From contig CM059431.1 in the NCBI GenBank assembly GCA_030390025.1, forward strand, positions 104,224,001-104,288,000: a stretch of 64,000 nt of DNA. The letters run 5' to 3'. The stretch is from Squalus acanthias. Lineage: Eukaryota. Position numbers and translations under genes: made by a program. The notes beneath the pieces were generated by a model. The model saw nothing but the letters and a program-made list of their open reading frames with translations, did not search any database and had not been told where the DNA came from. The number at the start of each line of letters is the position of its first letter. Positions within the stretch are counted from its first letter, which is position 1. Of the stretch, positions 43,937-56,154 are shown piece after piece.

Positions 43937-44125
43937 AAGAAAGACTTCCATTTATATCACGCCTTTCACAACCTCAGGATTTCCCAAAGAGATTTACAGC
44001 CAATGAAGTACTCTTGAAGTGTAGTCACTGTTGTAATGTAGGAAACGCGGCAACCAATTTGCGCACAGCAAGCTCCCACAAACAGCAATGTGATAATGAC
44101 CAGATAATCTGTTTTTAGTGATTTT
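43937..44125 (-). mobile_element. Deu-domain SINE, 3' part
   Basis: Matches the other SINE copies. Confidence 0.78.
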
Positions 44126-45898
44126 ATGTTATCATAATAACTAGGCCAGAACACTTTAGATTTTGCTAATAATACAGTTTACAGTGATGATAATTTTCAA
44201 GGTGGAAATTGTCAGTTCAGTTTTCCCTATTCCTTAACTTTCAGGTATGTTGACTGCTCATTTCATAAAATGCACTCTAAATCAAATGGCATATGGGAAT
44301 GTCACCTCGCTCTGTGCATCTACTTCAGATGAAATAATTTTGTTTATGCATAGCCTTTTCACAAGACTGCCATAAAGACTGCTCATAACATCGCGTTCTT
44401 CATGAACACTTCCGTCGTATACTGCTGCTTTCTCAACACATGACTTGGCATTGCTCCATCACATTTACTGATCTCCTGATTCTCTTCCTTTTTCTGGCTC
44501 GCAGTCAACTGATCTCTCTGAAAGTATTTCATCATCCATTCAAGCAGCATGTCTGAACATGTTGTGTGCGGTGTTGTTGTTGCAGTCACTTTGATACATG
44601 GTCTGACCTTTATATGAGTATCTCTTTCTTGCCATCTTATTTTTAGTATTCTTCGTATGTTGAACAGAGTTGAATTTCTTCGCTGCGTCAAAGTCAAGGC
44701 TTAAGATATCTTTAATACAGTAGGGGAGGACTGCTCTGTTGTTTATTTTCATCTTCTGATACAGTCAATTACATTCTAATCCTTCATTAATTAACTTTCC
44801 CGTAGATCAAACAGTAGCAGTATTTTATTTTCAAGTTTTAAAATGGAATAACATTTTCCTAAAAAATCTCATGCTGTTAATTTTCAAGAGAATATCACCC
44901 TTTGTGCCTGCCACTATGGTGCGTTATTCCACCTTGCCCTCCTCAACGTAACCTTTGCAATGTCATCAATAAGTCCATCCTCCACCACCACATCTCCTCA
45001 GTGGTCCAACTGCAATGGACCACCTATGGCCGGTTCCCTTCCTACCTGCCTCAACATAGCCAGCGCACCTTTGGCAACACTTGTCATGCCACTTTAAAAT
45101 TCCCGAGATTTCATCCTTGCCCTTCTCTCATGTGCATGTTGCCCCTTGGTGACATTAGTTATAGGCGTGGGGTAGGCTTCTACCTATATGTTGAAGACAC
45201 CCAGCTCTACCTGTCCACCACCACCAACTTGAACAAATATGGATGAGCTGGAACTTTCTCCAACTGAACATTAGGAAAAGCGAAGTCATCCTATTTGCCT
45301 ACCACCAAAAACTTTTGTGTACTTTCCCCCTCCCCCGGCACCGCTCGCCCCTCCCCAACCCCGTTACAATGTCCTCGCCGGCTGCTAACTCATGGCTGAT
45401 CCAGACAGTGCGTAACCTTGATGACCTGTTCAACCCTGAGCTGAGCCCCAAATTCCATACCCTATCCATTACCACAATTGTTCAGTTCCATCGCCTCATC
45501 ATGGCTTACCTCTGTCTTTACCACACTCCCACTGTTGGTGAAACCCTTAACTACACATTTGTTGCCTCCAGACATAGCATTTTTCAATGCATTCCTTGCT
45601 GGCTTTTCAAGTTCCAACCTACAAACATTCTAACTCATTTAAACTCCACCACTTGTGCCCTATTCTCCACTAATCCCATTCACACTGCAGCTTCATCCTC
45701 GTTAACCTCCACTGGCAACCATCTCCCAATGCGCTGCATTCAAATTCCTCATCCTTACCAAAAACATTCCTCCACAGCCTCATCCCATCCTCTTTCTGCA
45801 AACTTCTTCAGTCCTACATCCCACCCAATGCTCTCTGGACCTCCAACTCTCTTCCTATTCATTCCCATTCCCTTTGCTCCACCATTGAAGACTTCAGC

Positions 45899-46060
45899 AG
45901 TCAAGGACATTCAGCCTCCGATCTTCGGGTAAGCGTTCTCCAAGGCGGCCTTCGAGACACACGACAATGCAAAATCGTTGAGCAGAAACTGATAGCCAAG
46001 TACCGCACCCATGAGGACAGCCTCAACCGGGATCTTGGGTTCATGTCACGCTACATGTAA
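45899..46060 (+). pseudogene. Penelope-like ORF C-terminus (GIY-YIG endonuclease region)
   Basis: Manual translation: SQGHSASDLRVSVLQGGLRDTRQCKIVEQKLIAKYRTHEDSLNRDLGFMSRYM*. Confidence 0.75.
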
Positions 46061-46367
46061 CCCCACCTGACGTAGAGTCATCCAGACTCGAGTCGTCGTT
46101 GGCTTGTTCTCTCTACACAGATGCGGCTGGACCTGCTGTGATTTCCAGCAAAAAAAGTTTTTTGTTTTCCATACAGACCCCAGCATCTGCCACATTGTCT
46201 TTGATGTAATGTTTTCCTGACTGACCTGTTTGGACACCATCCACACCTTTGATTGCCGTGATTATCTCTCTGCCGAGGTGTGATAAAGGGCAGTTGGAAA
46301 GATTAACTGTAATCATCTGGCTGTGTTCTCTGACTATATATGCTGTGCCTATATGTATCTCTTCACT

Positions 46368-46404
46368 TCGCCTGATGAAGGAGCAGCGCTCCGAAAGCTT
46401 GTGA
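46368..46404 (+). ncRNA. Minimal type I hammerhead ribozyme motif
   Basis: TCGC CTGATGA A GGAGC agc GCTCC GAAA GC T T GTGA. Confidence 0.7.
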
Positions 46405-46505
46405 TTTCAAATAAAACTGTTGGACTATAACCTGGTGTTCCTCTTTTTGGTTGGACAACACAAATTTACTGTAAATCAATTAAAATTTTAAATGAAACTT
46501 AATAA

Positions 46506-49500
46506 TCAAATCAAAATTTCGAAGTCCGGGGTGACGATGCACTCCAGCCCCCGCGGCGCCCACCGGTCGCGGAAAAACTCAAGCGTGCCGGCGGACACCG
46601 CGTGCTCCATCTCCAGGGCCACCCGGGCGCGAACATGGCCGCGGAAGAGAGGCAGGCAATCGGGCCGAACGACCCCCTCGACCGCCCGCTGCCTGGACCA
46701 ATTAATGGCTTTCTTGGCCAGGCCCAGGAGCAGTCCTACGAGGAGGTCCTCCGACCTACCCGCTCCCCTCCGCACCGGGTGACCGTAGATCAGGAGCGTG
46801 GGGCTGAAGTGCAACCAGAAATTGAGGAGCAGCCCCTTCAAATAATGAAAGAGGGGCTGCAACCTCTCACATTCAACATAAATGTGATAAACGGACTCCT
46901 CCAGGCCGCAAAAATGGCAAGCAGCCTGGGAGTCCGTAAACCTACTTAAAATCCTATTGCACGGGACTGCTCCGTGCAACACCCTCCAGGCCAAGTCCCC
47001 AATAGAACAAGGGAAGACTCCCGCGTAGAGAGCCTTCCAATGGGGACCTTCGCCTCCGCCGGACGGCAGGATGGTACGCCAAGGCGTGTCCGGACGGCAG
47101 ACGAAGATGGCAAAGTGGAGAGTGTGCAGGAGCAGCCCGTACAGGAAACGCCTCCGTGCGGATTGAAAGGGCACGGAGGGCATTTCTCCGAGAAGGCTCA
47201 AGTGGTGAGGCGGCGGCTCCCGAGGGAGGATTCGGGGCCGGGCGCCGATAAGGAATTCCGTCCGAACGGGGGTCAGTTCGGACGGGATCGCCCCACGTGC
47301 TTGAGCCTCCTCGACACACCTAGTGGAGACGGGGCCCAGTGCCACTTTTAGCGACTCGATGGCTTTGACCGCGAGCCGGACGTTGACCCAGGACATGCGC
47401 CTCGCCAACTCCTCCGGCGCCATCCAGCCCGCTCCTCCGCCATCGAGCAGGTCCCCGACTCTGGTCACCTTACCGGGCACAGCCCTGCCCTCCGCCAGCC
47501 AGCCGAACCCGCGGTCGTGGAGGTGCGGATTCCTGAACAGCGGCTCCCGAAGGACGGCCGCCGCTCCTGACGGGGGAGAACTGCGCTCGGAGGCGACGCT
47601 GTTCCAAACCCATAGCAGTTCCTGGTAGAAGACAGGCAGCTCCCGCAGGCTGGCACGCGTGCCATCCACTCTCACAAACAGGAGCTGCGTGTCGTAATTG
47701 AGGCCGTGCAGCTGGCGGAAGAAATACGTCGCCAGCGCACGCCACCTAGGAGGATTCTCCACGTACAGGTATCTCTGCAGCGTCTGAAGACGGAAAGTCG
47801 CCGCCTGGGTGCGAAGGCACACCAGCGCCTGACCGCCCTCCCTAAGCGGGAGACTCAAAACCGCGGCAGAGACCCAGTGCTTCCTTTTGTCCCAGAAGAA
47901 GTCGACGAGCTTCTTCTGCATCTTGGCGACAAACGCAGGGGGAGGGATCAAAGTGACCAACCGGTACCACAACATGGCGGCCACCAGCTGGTTTATGACC
48001 AGCGCTCGACCCCTGTAGGACAACACTCGGAGCAGTCCTGTCCAGCGTCCTAGGCGAGCGGTGACTTTGGCCTCCAGCTCTTGCCAGTTCGCCGGCCAGG
48101 CGTCCTCGGCCGGGCTGAGGTAGACTCCCAGGTAGAGGAGGTGCGTGGTGCTCCAGGCGAAAGGCCCGAACTCCTCCGGCAGGGAGTCCACCCACCATGG
48201 GCCCACCAGGAGTCCAGAACATTTCTCCCAGTTGATCTTGGCGGAGGATGCGTCCGAGTAAATCTGCTGGCATTCTCGCATCCTCCGCAAGTCGACGGGA
48301 TCCGTGACCGCGAGGAGCACGTCATCAGCGTAAGCCGAGAGGACCACCTCCACGCCCGGCCCTTGCAGAGCCAGTCCCGTCAACCTCTTCCGCAAGAGGC
48401 GCAGGAAAGGCTCCACGCAAACGGCGTATAACTGACCGGACATGGGGCATCCCTGACGCACCCCCCTCCCGAAGCGAAGGGGCGCCGTCAAAGACCCGTT
48501 AACTTTAATGAGACACTCCGCGGCGGCGTACAGAAGTCGGATCCGGGTGACGAAATGCGTCCCGAACCCGAATGCGCGCAGAGTCCCGAAAAGATACTCG
48601 TGATCCACCCTGTCGAACGCCTTCTCCTGATCCAGGGAAAGGAAGGCGACCGACAGACCAGCCCTCTGGGAATGGTGGACCAGGTCCCGGACCAGATGGA
48701 TGTTATCGTGGATGCTCCGGCCCGGGACCGTGTAGGACTGGTCGGGGTGGATCATGCGGGCCAGCACGGTGCCAAGGCGAGCAGACATAGCCCTGGCGAA
48801 AATTTTGTAGTCCGTGCTGAGGAGGGAGACCGGGCGCCAGTTCTTAAGTAGGCGGAGATCGCCCTTCTTGGGCAGCAGGACGATGACCGCCCTGCGCCAA
48901 GAGAGGGGCATCTCCCCGGTCGCCAGACTTTCCCCCAGGACCCGCGCGTAGTCGTCCCCCAAGACGTCCCAGAACGCCCTGTGGAACTCCACGGTCAGCC
49001 CGTCCAGCCCCGGGGACTTGCCCCTCGAGAGCTGGCGCAGGGCGCCGGTCAGCTCCGCCAGGCTTAGCGGAGCTTCTAAATTCTCGGCGCCCTCCGGGCC
49101 GACCTTCGGCAGGTCCTCCCACAAAACTCTGCGCGCATCCTCGCTGGACGGATCCGAAGAGAACAGAGCCCCGTAATAGGCCCGGGCCTCCGCGCTGATG
49201 CCCTCCGGATCCGAGACCAGAGATCCGTCGTCGGCCAGCAGCCCCAAGAGCTGCTTACGGACCCCCCGTCTTTTTTCCAGCGAGTAGAAGAAGGGGGAGC
49301 CGCGGTCCAGGTCCCGCAGGAACTGGATCCGCGACCTCACGTACGCGCCTCGGGACCCGACCAGCTGCAGGTCCTTCAGCGCGCCCTTCTTCTCTTCGTA
49401 CACCTTCCGCAGGGCCGGGTCCTCGACGACTTGACCGAGACGGGACTCCAGGTCGAGCACTTCTTTCTCCAATCGCCCGACCCGGGCCTCCCGCCTCTTG

Positions 49501-50405
49501 GTCGACCCCTTCGCGTACTCCTGACAGAAGACGCGGACGTGAGCCTTGCCCACGTCCCACCATAGCCTCAAGGAGGGGAAGCCTCCCCGCTTCCTTCTCC
49601 AGTCGGCCCAGAACCAGCGAAACGAATCCCGGAACCGCGCGTCCTCCAGCAGCAGGTTGTTAAAATGCCAGTACGCGGACCCCCCCCGCGCGCGCAGCGG
49701 AGCGAGCTCCGCCCACACCAGGTGGTGGTCCGTGCACGGCACCGGCCGCATGGAAGCCGCCGGAACGCAGGAGACGTACGCCCGGGAAATGTAAAGGCGG
49801 TCGATTCTGGACCTTCCTCCTCCAGACCTCACGCTCGTGAAGGCGCTGGAGTCGGGATGGAGATTTCGCCAGACGTCCACCAAGTCGAAGGACCCGACCA
49901 GGTCCCGCAACTTCTCCATCGCCGCCGGGCTTCGCGGGGGACCCGACCGGTCCCGCGCCTCGAGGGTACAATTGAAATCCCCCCCGAGGATGACGCACTC
50001 GCCCACGTCGATGGAGCCCAGAAGAGCGGACACTTCTCCGAAGAAGCGCACTTGCTGCGCACCGGTCCGGGGGGCGTACACGTTCACTAAATGGAGCGGC
50101 ACACCTCCCAGGCGAACAGTGACCTGGAGCAAGCGGCCCGGCACGTGCTCCTTGACCCTCAAGATCTCCGGCTGAAAATGCGGGGCCAGCAAGACAGCCA
50201 CCCCGCAGGAATTGTTGGAGAGGTGACTCATGCTGACCCCTCCTTGCCACTCCAGGAGCCACGTGGCCTCGTCTCCCGGAACGGTGTGGGTTTCTTGCAG
50301 GAAGCACACCGCATATTTCCCGTCCCGAAGGACCGAGAAGTTATTGAATCTACGGCGCGCCTCCCTGCTGCCGTTGATGTTGAGGCTGGCTATGGTTATC
50401 TTCAT
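46506..50405 (-). CDS. Tx1 ORF2: APE endonuclease, reverse transcriptase, C-terminal zinc finger
   Basis: SLNING, LQETH, GDFN, SRIDRLY, TDHH; KSPGLDG, WRPVSLL, DQEKAFDRV, QGCPMS, YADD; CHFC..ESVYH...C; ATG at 50405. Confidence 0.96.
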   Translation of the reverse strand: MKITIASLNINGSREARRRFNNFSVLRDGKYAVCFLQETHTVPGDEATWLLEWQGGVSMSHLSNNSCGVAVLLAPHFQPEILRVKEHVPGRLLQVTVRLGGVPLHLVNVYAPRTGAQQVRFFGEVSALLGSIDVGECVILGGDFNCTLEARDRSGPPRSPAAMEKLRDLVGSFDLVDVWRNLHPDSSAFTSVRSGGGRSRIDRLYISRAYVSCVPAASMRPVPCTDHHLVWAELAPLRARGGSAYWHFNNLLLEDARFRDSFRWFWADWRRKRGGFPSLRLWWDVGKAHVRVFCQEYAKGSTKRREARVGRLEKEVLDLESRLGQVVEDPALRKVYEEKKGALKDLQLVGSRGAYVRSRIQFLRDLDRGSPFFYSLEKRRGVRKQLLGLLADDGSLVSDPEGISAEARAYYGALFSSDPSSEDARRVLWEDLPKVGPEGAENLEAPLSLAELTGALRQLSRGKSPGLDGLTVEFHRAFWDVLGDDYARVLGESLATGEMPLSWRRAVIVLLPKKGDLRLLKNWRPVSLLSTDYKIFARAMSARLGTVLARMIHPDQSYTVPGRSIHDNIHLVRDLVHHSQRAGLSVAFLSLDQEKAFDRVDHEYLFGTLRAFGFGTHFVTRIRLLYAAAECLIKVNGSLTAPLRFGRGVRQGCPMSGQLYAVCVEPFLRLLRKRLTGLALQGPGVEVVLSAYADDVLLAVTDPVDLRRMRECQQIYSDASSAKINWEKCSGLLVGPWWVDSLPEEFGPFAWSTTHLLYLGVYLSPAEDAWPANWQELEAKVTARLGRWTGLLRVLSYRGRALVINQLVAAMLWYRLVTLIPPPAFVAKMQKKLVDFFWDKRKHWVSAAVLSLPLREGGQALVCLRTQAATFRLQTLQRYLYVENPPRWRALATYFFRQLHGLNYDTQLLFVRVDGTRASLRELPVFYQELLWVWNSVASERSSPPSGAAAVLREPLFRNPHLHDRGFGWLAEGRAVPGKVTRVGDLLDGGGAGWMAPEELARRMSWVNVRLAVKAIESLKVALGPVSTRCVEEAQARGAIPSELTPVRTEFLIGARPRILPREPPPHHLSLLGEMPSVPFQSARRRFLYGLLLHTLHFAIFVCRPDTPWRTILPSGGGEGPHWKALYAGVFPCSIGDLAWRVLHGAVPCNRILSRFTDSQAACHFCGLEESVYHIYVECERLQPLFHYLKGLLLNFWLHFSPTLLIYGHPVRRGAGRSEDLLVGLLLGLAKKAINWSRQRAVEGVVRPDCLPLFRGHVRARVALEMEHAVSAGTLEFFRDRWAPRGLECIVTPDFEILI

Positions 50406-50430
50406 CTCAGAAGCATAGTGCAACCTCTAC

Positions 50431-52587
50431 CTAACGGAGGGGAGGGAGGGCGGTCACTGACGACCGCCACTCCCTCAGCAGCCCAGTGTGGAACGTCTTG
50501 AGCCGACGCAGCTCGAGCCGGCCAACGTCCTTGTCCGCGCCCATGATTTTAACGGCGGCGCGGACGGACACGACGAGCAGCGTCAGCTCCGACCACTTGT
50601 CGAGGGCCAGCCGGATCTTCTTGTGACGACCCTGGCTCAGGGCCATAAAATCCCGGAGTTCCCCTACGGGGATGAGGGGAGAGTCGGTGAAGGGCACGAG
50701 GGCGTCCATCGCCTCACTGCCGATGGACTCCAAATCGTCCTCGATGCCCCCCACCGAGTCCCCGTCCTCCTCCGGGAGGTCGTCACCGGCGGCCAACCCG
50801 TCCGTCACACAGGGTGCAGCGAACGGCTCGGCCGCACCGGCCGGCCCCGCCTCCGTCACGATCCCACCCCCAGGATCGGTGGCAGAGGAGTCCACCCTGG
50901 GCTCCTTCAGGGGCGCCGGGCCGGGAGGCGGCGGCGGCGGTTCGGGGCCCCCTCCCGCCTCAGGCGCCGGGGCGACCGGAGAAACCGGGGAGAAAATAAT
51001 CCCAAATTCCTCCAGCACGTCCGGCGCCAACGACAGAGACGGAGTCAGGGGGCTTTCCGTCTCCCCGCCACCAACCTCCGACCCAGCGGGCTGGGGATTG
51101 CTACACTCCTCCACCAGGTCGAGCAGTCCCTGGGAGATATCTGGGTTATAAAAGGCGGGCTCGGCTTCAGCCTCTTTGGCCTCGCCCGCCCCAGTCCCCA
51201 GGACGCCCGACCCGGCGAGGAGCAACGGTTCCGTAACTACATTTCCCTCCGCGGGTTGTTCCGCGCCCCCCCCCACGGGCAGGGTCTCTTCCCCATCCCC
51301 GGGAGGCACAGGTCGGACAGACTCGGCTGTCTCACCCTCCCGAGGGACAGACGACCCCTGCCGATCGCGCGCGACGATGACGGTGGTGGGGTGGGGCGCA
51401 GCACCCGCGGCGGGCGACTGGCCCCCTTTTGCGGAGGGACCTTCCTCCTCGCAGTCCTCCTGCTGGGGGCGGAGCTTTCTTTTTAACGTATTGGGGCCCG
51501 GAGAGGGGGAGGCCTCCATGTCTGCTGGGGCCTCCCTCTCTGCCCCCTTCCGACGACTGGGTTTCTTGGGCCCCTTGGGCCCGAGCCCGGCCGCAGGTCT
51601 TGATTCAGCTGCCTCAGCAGTTGCGGTCACGGTCACGGGCCCGGGCACGAGGACCCCCCCAGTCTCATGCGTCCCGACCAACTCCGCGATATACTCGGGC
51701 GTGAGTTCGGCCAATTCAGATGTTTCCTCCGCGAGGGGATCCGCCCTTATGTGTTTATTTTTCCTACGCGCCTTCCTTCCCCCCGGACGCTCTCCCTCCT
51801 CCCCGCCGGAGGCCGTGGTGGAGTTGGCCTCCGATTTCGACCGCGCATCCGTCGCCGTCGACGCGCGGACAGTATCAGGGGGAGGGGGGGCGGCGGCGCC
51901 AACCCTGGCCGCGCCAGGTGTCGTGGCGGCCTTGGAGGCGGGGCAGTTTTTGCGGACGTGCCCCACCTCCTTACAGGCGTAGCACCGCGCGCCGTCCGAG
52001 GTCCAGAAGACGCGGTGGGCGGTCCCCCCGTGGAGCACCGTGAACGCGCCATCCGCGTCCTCCTCCCGCGCCAGCCGGACGAAAAGCTGGCGCCGGAAGG
52101 AGAAGACGTGCTGAAGGCTGGCTTCCCGGAAGCCGAGCGGGATGGGTGTGATCCCCGACCTCACCTCCCCCAGTTGACGTAGGTGGGGGAGGAGGAGCTC
52201 ACCCGGAACAAAGGGCGGGACGTTGGAAACCACAATCCTTTGCGCGGTGGCCTCAAGGGGGTCCACCGGCAGGAAGGTCCCGCCCACGGTGAGCCCCTTC
52301 TCGATGGCCAGGGACACCGCCCGCTCCGACCCCAGGAAGAACACAGCCTTGCCGTACATTTTAGAGGCGGCGACGATGGCTGAAGGGCCGACAACCCCAG
52401 CCATGGCTTTTACACACGCCTCTATAGTCATGTTGGGGTGAGTGTAGCTCTTGACCCCATTCTTCCTCGTAAGGAGGGTAAAAGGTGACGGGGTAACAGG
52501 AGGACTCGTGGCTGCGGCCGTGGCCGCGGCTGCCACGCTCGCGTACGTCCTCGCTGCCCCCGCCACCGGCGAAGATGTGGTCGCCAT
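50431..52587 (-). CDS. Tx1 ORF1 (RRM-like region, CCHC zinc knuckle, long low-complexity tail)
   Basis: SKMYGKAVFFL, IVVSNVPPF, HVFSFRRQLF and CYACKEVGHVRKNC; first ATG at 52587. Confidence 0.93.
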   Translation of the reverse strand: MATTSSPVAGAARTYASVAAAATAAATSPPVTPSPFTLLTRKNGVKSYTHPNMTIEACVKAMAGVVGPSAIVAASKMYGKAVFFLGSERAVSLAIEKGLTVGGTFLPVDPLEATAQRIVVSNVPPFVPGELLLPHLRQLGEVRSGITPIPLGFREASLQHVFSFRRQLFVRLAREEDADGAFTVLHGGTAHRVFWTSDGARCYACKEVGHVRKNCPASKAATTPGAARVGAAAPPPPDTVRASTATDARSKSEANSTTASGGEEGERPGGRKARRKNKHIRADPLAEETSELAELTPEYIAELVGTHETGGVLVPGPVTVTATAEAAESRPAAGLGPKGPKKPSRRKGAEREAPADMEASPSPGPNTLKRKLRPQQEDCEEEGPSAKGGQSPAAGAAPHPTTVIVARDRQGSSVPREGETAESVRPVPPGDGEETLPVGGGAEQPAEGNVVTEPLLLAGSGVLGTGAGEAKEAEAEPAFYNPDISQGLLDLVEECSNPQPAGSEVGGGETESPLTPSLSLAPDVLEEFGIIFSPVSPVAPAPEAGGGPEPPPPPPGPAPLKEPRVDSSATDPGGGIVTEAGPAGAAEPFAAPCVTDGLAAGDDLPEEDGDSVGGIEDDLESIGSEAMDALVPFTDSPLIPVGELRDFMALSQGRHKKIRLALDKWSELTLLVVSVRAAVKIMGADKDVGRLELRRLKTFHTGLLREWRSSVTALPPLR

Positions 52588-53959
52588 AATGGAGGGTTCT
52601 TTAAGGGCTACACTCACCCCAAGTCACAGGCCTGAAGGTGTTAATGGCCTCGGTTTTTTTTTTTTGTTTTCCCCCGAGCAGAGGGAGCTCTTAAATTGAA
52701 GGCACACCTCTCCCTTTAGTTGATTGAGTTGGGAGAGGGGCCTTCTCCCCTCTGCTCAATGGGTACTTAATTAAAAAGATAATGAGGTGCCTCTTAGAGA
52801 GAGAGAGGCAGAGAGAGACAAGTGACAAAGAGAGAGAGAGAGAGGGGGGGGTGGGAAGGAGGGAAGCCGCAAGGGCAGGGTCGCCACTCAGGATGGTGGG
52901 TGGGTGGGTGTTGGCAGGGGGGTGCACTCTCCGATGTAATAAAAGTCTTTGGTGGTGGTCTTCTGGTGGGGGGAGAAGATGTCTTCACCTGGGATAGCTG
53001 GAGATGCCCAGGCTCAGTCCTGCACCAGGTCTTAACGATGCCCAATTGGATTAAATTAATTGGGGAACTTCACCTAGGCAGCTCCAGCTGTCCCAGGTCA
53101 GGCAATGGGAAAGGGGTGTTTAATATGGTGTGTGCGGCCTAGCTTTTACAGAAGCCACACACACACCCCTTAGATGTTCCGGCCTTCTTCTTTTCTTCTT
53201 TCCTCCCCCCACCTACAAAACAAAGTCTCTGGGAGAGTGCCCCAGAATCACACCCACCTGTAGCTGATATTCTTTCCTTCCTCCCTCCTTCCAAACAGAT
53301 GATGGATGTTTGTGATGTTTTTCTCCCCTCTCTCCCTCTCCTAAAATGGAGGCCAATTGAGGAGGCAGTGTGGAAAGGCCTCTCCTCTGTTGTTAATGGC
53401 CTTGGCCTTCCCTTCTTTTCTTTCTCCAAACTGGTGTTGTGCGACTTCTCACAATTGAAGACTTCAGCCATCTCAGATCCAGTTTCTGGAACTCACTCCC
53501 TGAACCCTTTATATTGCTGATATACCCATTGCCTTTAAAAGTTTCTTCAAAATTGATCTTTTCAGCAATGTTTTTGATCAACTTTGCTGACTTGCCCACC
53601 ACAGTTTAACATCTACTTCTCCTCCGTGAAGTGGCCTGGAAGGTTGCTGTGTTAAAGGCGCTACACAAATGCAACAAGCTGGTGTTGAATTCTTCCCTAT
53701 TTCTCATAGACTTTTAAAGTGCACCACTCTATGAAGCTCGACTTAGATTAGATTTCAAAGCCTGTTGACAACGCAAAAATACTCTTACGAATCCATGATC
53801 ACTTTCGGCAAAACTCATCTTTCAACTTCAACTGATTTCCTGCTCTCAATATTATTACTGTTATCCCTGACTGATGCGGAGATGCCGGTGTTGGACTGGG
53901 GTGGACAAAAGTGAGAAGTCGCACAACACCAGGTTATAGTCCAACAGCTTTATTTGAAA

Positions 53960-53997
53960 TCACAAGCTTTCGGAGCGGCTGCTCCTTCGTCAGGTGA
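53960..53997 (-). ncRNA. Minimal type I hammerhead ribozyme motif
   Basis: TCAC CTGACGA A GGAGC agcc GCTCC GAAA GC T T GTGA on the minus strand. Confidence 0.7.
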
Positions 53998-54296
53998 AGT
54001 GAAGAAATACAAATGGGCACAGCATATATAGACAGAGAACAATGCCTGTGCAGAGAACAATGCCAGACGACTACAGTTAATCTTTCTAACTGCCCTTTAT
54101 CACACCTCGGCAGAGAGACAATCACGGCAATCAAATCCAACCAGGTCAGTCAGGAAGACATTACATCAAAGACGAGAGCAAAATACAACAACTCAGCGTA
54201 GTCTGTAGAAAGATTAACTGTAGTCATCTGGCATTGTTCTCTGCACAGGCATTGTTCTCTGTCTATATATGCTGTGCCCATTTGTATTTCTTCACT

Positions 54297-54333
54297 TCAC
54301 CTGACGAAGGAGCAGCGCTCCGAAAGCTTGTGA
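54297..54333 (+). ncRNA. Minimal type I hammerhead ribozyme motif
   Basis: TCAC CTGACGA A GGAGC agc GCTCC GAAA GC T T GTGA. Confidence 0.72.
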
Positions 54334-54682
54334 TTTCAAATAAAGCTGTTGGACTATAACCTGGTGTTGTGCGACTTCTCACTTTTATCCCTGACTGAGT
54401 GTGACTTGTAGTTCTCTTGAGCCTACCAGCAGGATGTGCAAGAAAAGTAGCGTGATCTGAACTCAGATCTTCCTCACCATTTTATCAGATGTGTCTGATT
54501 GAGATTGTAATTCACCGTATGGAAACTACCAGCAGGAACCATGTGTTAGCACAACATGACATTGAGGTTATAATACAGTATTCGCTACGCTCTCATTTGA
54601 GTTGCATATGCTTGGAAAACTCTCACCTTTCTAACAACTTGTCAATAAATTAGCTGTAAGCAGCCTAGCACCAAGAAGGTGA

Positions 54683-55895
54683 TAAAGAAAGAAAGACTTG
54701 CATTTATATAGGACATCCCAAAGGGCATTGCAGCCAATGAAGTACTTTTGAAGTGTAGTCACTGTTGTAATGTGAGAAACGCAGCAACCGAATTGCGCAC
54801 AGCAAGCTCCCACAAACAGCAATGTGATAATGACCAGATAATGGGCCAGAAATTCGGCTCTTGTCGGGTGAGTACGCGCTGTGTACTCACCCGTAAGGCC
54901 ACCTGAAGTGTCGGTTTCCTGCATGCACTGCGCATGCGTGGGAAACCGGAACTTCCGTTCCCCTGAAGGGAGGGGTTCGGAAGTCGAATGCGTGCGCGGG
55001 AGAGGCTGCGCGCACGCAGCGAACTTCGATTTTTTTTTCAGGTTTCTCCGGGAGGGGAAGTATGGAGAAGCTGCACTTTTAAAAAGGAGCCGCAAGGCCT
55101 GTTTTTAACAAGGTAAGTGGTTAATTAATTACAATTTAAACATTTTTTCAACAGGTTTATCTTTCTTAAATACTTTAAAGAAAGGTAAGTTTATTTTTAG
55201 CACCGTTAAAAAGTATAATAAAAAAATTTCAAAAATTTAAATTTTTGTTTAAAGTAGTTAATTTATGTAACTTATAGTTATTTTAAAAATGTGATTTAAA
55301 AAAAAATTATTTGAAGTTTAAGTGTGGTTTTGGGGCCGATCTCTATTCATAGATTTGACAGGTCTTCCTGTCAAATCTATGAATGAAAATGCCCTGTTAG
55401 GATTGGCTCTCCATGGCCCACGTGATCCCAGGGGACGCTTCGAACTAACTGCGCCCCTGGGATACGCAAGCACTGCGCGCCGGCAGCTGGAGGAGGCCCA
55501 GGAGCTGAAGTCCACGTGGGCCCAAAGCACAACAGCAGGCTCAGTAGGCAAGTACACGCACGATGCTTGCACCCGCAGGAAGCCGGAGAGCCGAATTTCT
55601 GGCCCAATCTGTTTTTTAGTGGTTGAGGGATAAATATTGGTCAACACACCAGGGAGAACTCCCCTAGTCTTCTTGGAAATAGTGCCATGGGATCTTTTAT
55701 GTCAACATGAGAGAGCAGACGGGGCTTCGGTTTAATGTCTCATCCAAAAGACAGCACCTCTGACAGTGCAGCACTCCCTCAGCACTGCACTGGAGTGTCA
55801 GCTTAGATTTTGTGCTCAAGTCCCTGGAATGGGACTTTAACCCACAACCTTCTGACTCAGAGGTGAGTTTGCCAACACTGTGCCAAGGCTGACAC
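54683..55895 (-). mobile_element. Deu-domain SINE interrupted by a MITE
   Basis: SINE sequence GACCAGATAAT|CTGTTTT is split at the AAT TSD. Confidence 0.82.
54843..55605. mobile_element. Harbinger-type MITE, family A
   Basis: Perfect 19-bp TIR GGGCCAGAAATTCGGCTCT with 3-bp TSD AAT. Confidence 0.88.
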
Positions 55896-56154
55896 CTCAA
55901 TACACTGTAACACACTGCCACTGGCAGTGAAGGTCACCAGTGCCATCAACCTTTGTGTGATGGGGACATCTCAGGAGCCATCCACTTTGCCATGTACTAT
56001 CCTATTATGGAAGTAACTGAAGGCCCTGTATCACCAAACCATCCTGCTATAGTCATCTCAGCAATAGCCTGCAGTAGACCAATCACTCTGGGCAAGGAAA
56101 CAAGTGCACACAAGTCTCGTTGCCCAGTGAGTACAAAATGTTACAAAGATTTAC

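Follow-up and report, generated by a model that had tools for sequence, protein, structure and literature searches.

The minus strand of the window (the whole stretch of 64,000 nucleotides analysed here) carries a two-ORF LINE, which is the host of the inverted repeat considered below and which we take, by name, to be a Tx1 element; its anatomy fits this assumption. The features needed for the discussion are as follows.

53428-53452, minus strand: upstream half of the target repeat, whose downstream half lies at 46384-46439
52588-53427, minus strand: 5' leader of the window copy, 840 nt, no AUG, predicted nested helices
52831-53341, minus strand: leader domain I, predicted nested long-range helices (3-25) ending in two hairpin arms
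52674-52759, minus strand: leader domain II, predicted long hairpin (helices 27-28), with 88% of cells paired
52603-52622, minus strand: UTR arm of the stem, its 3' end 15 nt upstream of the ORF1 AUG
52620-52612, minus strand: donor-like 9-mer GGG/GUGAGU inside the UTR arm, a candidate splice donor
52587-50431, minus strand: ORF1, 718 aa, zinc knuckle
52484-52567, minus strand: inner helix domain in ORF1, enclosed by the stem; 52567-52558 is predicted to pair with 52493-52484
52433-52452, minus strand: ORF1 arm of the stem, codons 46-52, K-S-Y-T-H-P-N
50431-50474, minus strand: acceptor-like site, a predicted conserved hairpin (50474-50444) over a pyrimidine tract, followed by AG
50405-46506, minus strand: ORF2, 1299 aa, with APE endonuclease, reverse transcriptase and zf-RVT

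A domain search of ORF2 gave matches to PF03372 and PF00078, as well as a match to PF13966 that lies under its own curated cut-off, and the zf-CCHC match of ORF1 reached 20.4 bits against a cut-off of 20.8. The conserved part of ORF1 resembles 11 sturgeon and turtle proteins with identities of 39–57%, none of them labelled as Tx1 by its source. A short target repeat, presumably a Penelope-like end, adjoins both ends of the element, and the same target separates the units, about 7.17 kb each, of its tandem arrays in the 3.7-Gb genome. Contig joints at 53431 agree with insertion at a fixed site into another repeat. A two-ORF APE-RT element inserting into another repeat is also represented by Tx1L of Xenopus, for which the accessible part of the published account describes no leader structure (PMC4494074). 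The copy in the window is truncated at the 5' end by roughly 130–180 nt in comparison with seven other copies. A first look gave 1373 candidates for subfamily A and 1091 for subfamily B, figures that are not copy numbers.

In the RNA of the element, the UTR arm (52622-52603) comes first and is followed by the ORF1 arm (52452-52433). The arms form an inverted repeat that is complementary at 19 of 20 positions (95%), with 150 nt between them and a C.A pair (52606/52449) as the single mismatch, and the whole donor-like 9-mer GGG/GUGAGU does lie within the UTR arm, as the earlier note had claimed from the sequence. Its opinion that complementarity of this length was hardly accidental was also borne out: the best inverted 20-nt match within 300 nt is 19, versus 15–17 in 40 of 40 dinucleotide shuffles. 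The 301-nt region of the stem folds at z −6.5, a value equalled by none of 100 shuffles; the predicted energy of the stem helix is −32.7 kcal/mol, and its 16-bp core has a predicted pairing probability of 0.98 in a context of 1047 nt. The loop of 150 nt that was said to hold the ORF1 AUG needs a correction. The AUG (52587) is indeed situated between the arms, but the structure predicted there is a multibranch domain and not an open loop. It includes the inner helix of 10 bp, with a predicted probability of 1.0, which is helix 32 of the leader alignment and shows two-sided change in three of eight pairs. Since the A and U of the ORF1 AUG are predicted to be unpaired, the stem would leave the start codon itself uncovered.

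According to the prediction, the UTR-ORF1 stem belongs to a nested set of about a dozen helices that spans the whole leader, a context which the earlier note had missed. Along the RNA, a rod (53341-52831) is predicted to be followed by a hairpin (52759-52674) and by a last domain that is closed by the stem. The fold of the 840-nt leader has a z of −10.1, which 0 of 20 shuffles equal. Folds in sliding windows of 200 nt gave z near 0 in the leader, as is expected if the pairing is long-range, and they were not counted as support. The antisense strand of the leader gives an equally good fold (−451.8 vs. −438.3 for the sense strand). Rfam covariance models run over 44000-56000 gave no family match and one chance-level hit (E 0.75), and a search among solved structures returned nothing useful. 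In the literature searched, subscription papers and Repbase entries aside, no description of a Tx1 leader structure was found; a survey of vertebrate L1 elements deals with structure in the inter-ORF spacer, and its accessible part does not mention Tx1 (PMC5381506).

The composition of the leader is unusual in one more respect. It contains 0 AUG and 18 CAU triplets, the shuffle mean being 8.3 and none of 500 shuffles having 0, and over the leaders of 32 copies there are 29 AUG against 415 CAU. An AUG-free leader would point to scanning rather than to an IRES, and the latter was judged unlikely, since purged upstream AUGs imply scanning.

Conservation of the arms was followed from the nearest copies of the element to its older subfamilies. 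The 30 closest loci, taken from 40 matches and including the window copy, all have both arms unchanged. Older subfamilies were recruited by pattern searches that left the arms unspecified, and the subfamilies were represented by 32 copies, about 72–100% identical. In these representatives 94.9% of 607 cells of the stem are paired, with 36–53% in slid controls, over which the tested structure has an advantage as the window copy's own fold. The pairing probability of the core is at least 0.73 in 30 of the 32 copies. Two-sided change was found in six cells of the 32 copies, a number as high as in none of 500 shuffles, and in 2 of 19 pairs, which 140 of 500 shuffles reach. The covariation of the arms that the earlier note had named as a check was seen in part: both arms are kept and change in concert, but two-sided change is confined to 2 of 19 pairs, within one lineage and one genome. 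The inverted repeat is real, and this joint behaviour of its arms makes it likely that it forms, in cis, an RNA helix under selection.

A broader set of copies permits individual pairs to be considered. Eight matches at locus edges or without the ORF1 core were dropped before the counts, removal of five loci (with an insertion or no UTR) and of identical rows reduced 171 rows to 126, and the exclusion of four rows lacking one arm left 122. Among these copies, the pair 52614/52441 is A-U in 95, G-U in 17, G-C in 7 and unpaired in 3. On a tree of these related copies, built from the ORF1 sequence downstream of the coding arm, G-C is found on two branches, with starred forks and A-U between them, and G-U on a third. 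The C.A mismatch is kept in 112 of 122 copies and is replaced by U-A in five and by C-G in four, and the pair next outward from it is U-G or C-G in 16 of 16 rows of one clade. ADAR editing at this mismatch was considered as well, purely as a conjecture. In subfamily B, the donor +4 position has changed from A to G in 16 of 16 copies, and the partner U is retained in 15, giving G-U.

Each arm is also more conserved than its surroundings. The column conservation of the UTR arm is 0.94 versus 0.59–0.85 in the flanks, its variable columns are 4 of 20 against 40 of 53 flanking ones (p 2.7e-5), and conservation drops sharply at the 3' end of the arm. Third codon positions in the coding arm are conserved at 0.95 versus 0.70 and 0.78 outside it; one of six is variable against 43 of 62 outside (p 0.018), the comparison with downstream codons alone (1 of 6 vs. 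11 of 18, p 0.15) being not significant. The peptide KSYTHPN is unlike its sturgeon and turtle homologues, though the flanking residues are invariant, and this situation, with an unshared peptide between invariant columns, suggests that the constraint is likely on the RNA.

Three tandem copies with a broken ORF1 (L240-242) carry two changes in the UTR arm without changes in the partner, and in the best folds of two of the three the stem is lost. In four further runs no change was found in either arm; their cover was thin, with one run empty, and they were left out of the counts. More distant Tx1 families were not found in the element's own genome, where the top matches belong to the same lineage. 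A metagenome match (L115), considered as a relative, proved to be an unrelated sequence.

When the whole leader is considered in the alignment of the 32 representatives, 84.6% of its 5785 cells are paired, and 38 of 239 pairs show two-sided change; conservation is poor in the 5'-most predicted helices 1 and 2 and in some small helices. Among leader variants common to at least three copies, those giving G-U number 32 versus 12 giving A.C (p 0.004), and this excess favours selection on the sense RNA. When all variants are taken, including single-copy ones, the numbers are 80 and 76, and the asymmetry is gone. Shared changes respect pairing of the sense strand, and single-copy decay does not.

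In our opinion, the helix, which is kept across the Tx1 lineage and closes the last domain of the leader, may be a translation-coupled clamp on the initiation of ORF1; we assign to this reading a probability of roughly 0.45. Control of ORF1 translation, the second possibility raised in the earlier note, would fit better than a splice switch, considering the AUG-free leader and the arm ending 15 nt before the AUG. A scanning 40S subunit would cross the leader and, because of this position of the arm, would have to melt it before reaching the AUG; the predicted cost of opening the arm together with the AUG region is 34.1 kcal/mol. Ribosomes elongating along ORF1 would then traverse codons 46-52, which make up the coding arm, and prevent the helix from re-forming; the RNA would have two states, one of them open, translated and self-reinforcing, the other closed. 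Since the nucleus has no ribosomes, the closed state would prevail there, the donor-like site would also be hidden from U1, and the RNA would be helped to stay full length, such hiding being a constant mask and not a switch that sets a ratio. Complementarity, conservation of both arms, paired changes and the lack of upstream AUGs make up the evidence from which we infer the function of the clamp. The clamp does not explain why the arm should contain a donor consensus, situated 30 nt upstream of the AUG.

A coding arm with such properties is known from the Min Jou interaction of phage MS2, in which ribosomes passing through the coding arm free a helix limiting initiation. The MS2 interaction couples two bacterial genes, whereas the Tx1 arm would act on the start of the very ORF that contains it, and this in a eukaryotic leader subject to scanning. 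The U5:AUG duplex of HIV-1 is similar in that a segment of the UTR pairs over a long range with the start of the first ORF and closes the domain of the donor region, and this pairing is tied, in the accessible part of the report, to translation versus packaging (PMC5192399). In HIV-1 the start codon forms part of the duplex and the donor is a proven one (PMC5192399), whereas in the present element the AUG is enclosed and the partner lies 135–154 nt inside ORF1. The Tx1 element differs further in its helix of 19 bp, its non-LTR host and the absence of a dimer and of proven splicing.

The donor inside the arm suggests another main job of the stem, namely a constant splice-site mask that would keep U1 off a strong donor and avoid splicing to host or internal acceptors. 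In the predicted fold, the donor-like 9-mer lies fully in the helix, with an unpaired probability of 0.0 at 9 of 9 positions, and its opening would cost 23.4 kcal/mol with the ORF1 arm and 6.8 kcal/mol without it; moreover, it is the only GGTGAGT among five GGTRAG sites on the sense strand. In MLV, too, a leader structure would limit the access of U1 to the donor before the first ORF and so attenuate it, according to the accessible part of that study (PMC2794156); MLV makes a spliced env mRNA (PMC2794156), whereas no spliced product of the present element was found. Human L1, with its 5' UTR donor and SpIREs, is likewise a LINE with a donor in the leader, and since splicing is a dead end for an element of this type, its suppression should be favoured (PMC5860796). 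Spliced retrocopies make up 131 of 6,609 full-length human L1, or about 2%, with 11 spliced into ORF1, and the accessible part of the report describes no masking UTR-ORF1 helix (PMC5860796); in contrast, no spliced retrocopy of the present element was found. Masking as the main function is nevertheless rather unlikely. Mutation of the donor would be a cheaper solution than the maintenance of a 20-bp helix in coding sequence, and the other leader helices, about a dozen, are equally kept without any donor. The 9-mer is carried by 83 of 122 copies and +4 G by 23; this +4 base is the most variable one of the arm, changed from A to G on three branches with pairing retained, and subfamilies with the weaker +4 G donor still keep the whole stem.

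LINEs are thought to pick their templates by the 3' tail and by cis preference. This counts against an architectural role, in which the helix would serve RNP assembly, export or template selection, marking full-length RNA and not gating translation. The stem being one of many nested helices of similar conservation agrees with such a role, and in HIV-1 the U5:AUG pairing and residues adjacent to the donor build a packaging structure, as the accessible part of the report has it (PMC5192399). On balance, we consider it improbable.

The earlier note had proposed, as the first of two options, a cis switch that blocks U1 and sets the ratio of unspliced to spliced RNA, and this proposal is unsupported: no spliced genomic copy was found, contigs bridge the donor, and its +4 position varies most. 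A regulated switch would require that the open stem lets the donor join the AG at 50431, producing an ORF1-less mRNA for ORF2. The layout is indeed retrovirus-like, since the donor precedes the first AUG by 30 nt, and a pyrimidine tract with AG, likewise under a hairpin that is predicted and conserved, precedes the ORF2 AUG by 25–34 nt; the GU at +1/+2 is almost invariant among the copies, and the AUG-free leader would provide a clean first exon. This AG, 25 nt before the ORF2 AUG, is also part of the ORF1 stop. However, an out-of-frame AUG precedes that of ORF2 by 11 nt in most copies, and the junction searches were against the switch. The donor-to-ORF2 junction pattern had 0 matches across the genome; a second search gave one match, which is not from this element, and the control also gave one. 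Junctions with another base after the exon end had nine matches (two in unrelated DNA and seven in collinear copies), and six of six matches to further variant-donor junctions were collinear; 0 of 99 distinct donor contexts were joined to ORF2; junctions with the second exon starting G-N-G were covered only for the ORF2 acceptor. Zero spliced retrocopies excludes common, not rare, splicing, because, given the first-look candidate numbers of subfamilies A and B, the rarer L1 class would predict only a few copies.

In contigs of runs X1, X4 and X5 the unspliced sequence continues across the donor, and the 15 joints listed, out of 25, for four runs guessed to be RNA all lie elsewhere; this evidence is weak, since the RNA status is a guess and contigs drop rare forms. 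For the same reason, the candidate RNA runs being guesses and consisting of contigs, read depth was left unused. A contig break at 50405/50406, at the ORF2 AUG, was rejected as a splice joint, as 253 genomic copies have the other base there and the break reflects a difference between subfamilies. Since its use was sought and not found, the donor fails as a regulated donor of the HIV/MLV type, and a regulated switch is quite improbable.

Very improbable is a remnant without RNA function, left by a short inverted duplication or by a template switch, whose arms occasional copy correction would have kept similar: the lineage-specific arm peptide, which could reflect copying of one arm into the other, the few two-sided changes and the equally good antisense fold agree with it, but the persistent C.A mismatch and the G-U fixed in subfamily B are not expected from mirror copying, and the sharp conservation boundary at the 3' end of the arm and the sense-strand G-U excess among shared variants also speak against it. 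We have just as little confidence in a further scheme, in which the LINE would be run like a retrovirus. ORF1 would then be an intron between the donor and the acceptor-like AG, each under its own conserved helix, and rare opening would yield ORF2 mRNA; the UTR-ORF1 helix, formed only by unspliced RNA, would mark the RNA for copying, and spliced copies would therefore never reach the genome.

The division of one LINE RNA between translation and copying, as well as the ability of this RNA to stay unspliced, has been studied mostly in mammalian L1. With its folded, AUG-free leader of roughly 1 kb and a helix from the UTR to the coding sequence, this Tx1 lineage would possess a compact control element comparable to those of retroviral leaders. 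The helix is likely selected and would represent a variant of known leader control, a splice switch being unsupported. If the retrovirus-like scheme were true, it would represent a mode of reverse transcriptase expression that is new for a LINE.

The LINE, a two-ORF element of the Tx1 type lying on the minus strand, carries several predicted RNA structures and short candidate signals along its length, and it is placed in a short repeat which served as its target. The corresponding features are as follows.

50431-50474, minus strand: predicted hairpin over a pyrimidine tract, directly 5' of the ORF1 stop, conserved
50402-50416, minus strand: 4-codon ORF, starting 11 nt 5' of ORF2, its UGA overlapping the ORF2 AUG (AUGA)
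52985-53030, minus strand: second acceptor-like site of the 5' leader, pyrimidines followed by CCCAG/G (slash, splice point)
53252-53260, minus strand: donor-like site of the leader, CAG/GUGGGU
53903-54390 and 46197-46439: target repeat regions, antisense to the LINE

The stem of the hairpin at the ORF1 stop is retained in 12 copies of the LINE with a varying loop, and in the consensus register none of its pairs has changed on both sides. This hairpin is a candidate for acceptor masking or for translational coupling of ORF2. The AUG of the 4-codon ORF was found in most copies, not in all.

In the leader, the second acceptor-like site, whose U tract is longer in the sister subfamily B, and the donor-like site are each placed by the folding model within a helix. 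One leader hairpin has lost its 5' arm in subfamily B (leaders of copies L033 and L034; columns 520-580 of copy alignment A1), so the loss of one branch is tolerated by the leader fold. Near the end of ORF2, strong local folding was found on the minus strand in 15-shuffle tests at 46578-46777 (z of -6.1 in sense vs 0.6 in antisense) and at 46928-47127 (z of -5.3), and these modelled folds possibly form a 3' recognition structure.

The target repeat, forming a long inverted pair upstream, contains CUGACGA, a short stem and GAAA, which we take to be a hammerhead-like core. Hammerhead motifs of such a kind have been described in Penelope-like repeats (PMC4209133).

In tandem arrays, the first 45-57 nt or so of a unit belong to the downstream half of the target (5' ends of copies L002, L005, L016, L019, L026 and L030), so that every unit is headed by a landing site. 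Copies of subfamilies A and B are often found in head-to-head orientation with about 1.3 kb between them (L027, L029, L035-L037, L041, L044 and L045), as would be expected if both arms of the inverted target had received insertions.
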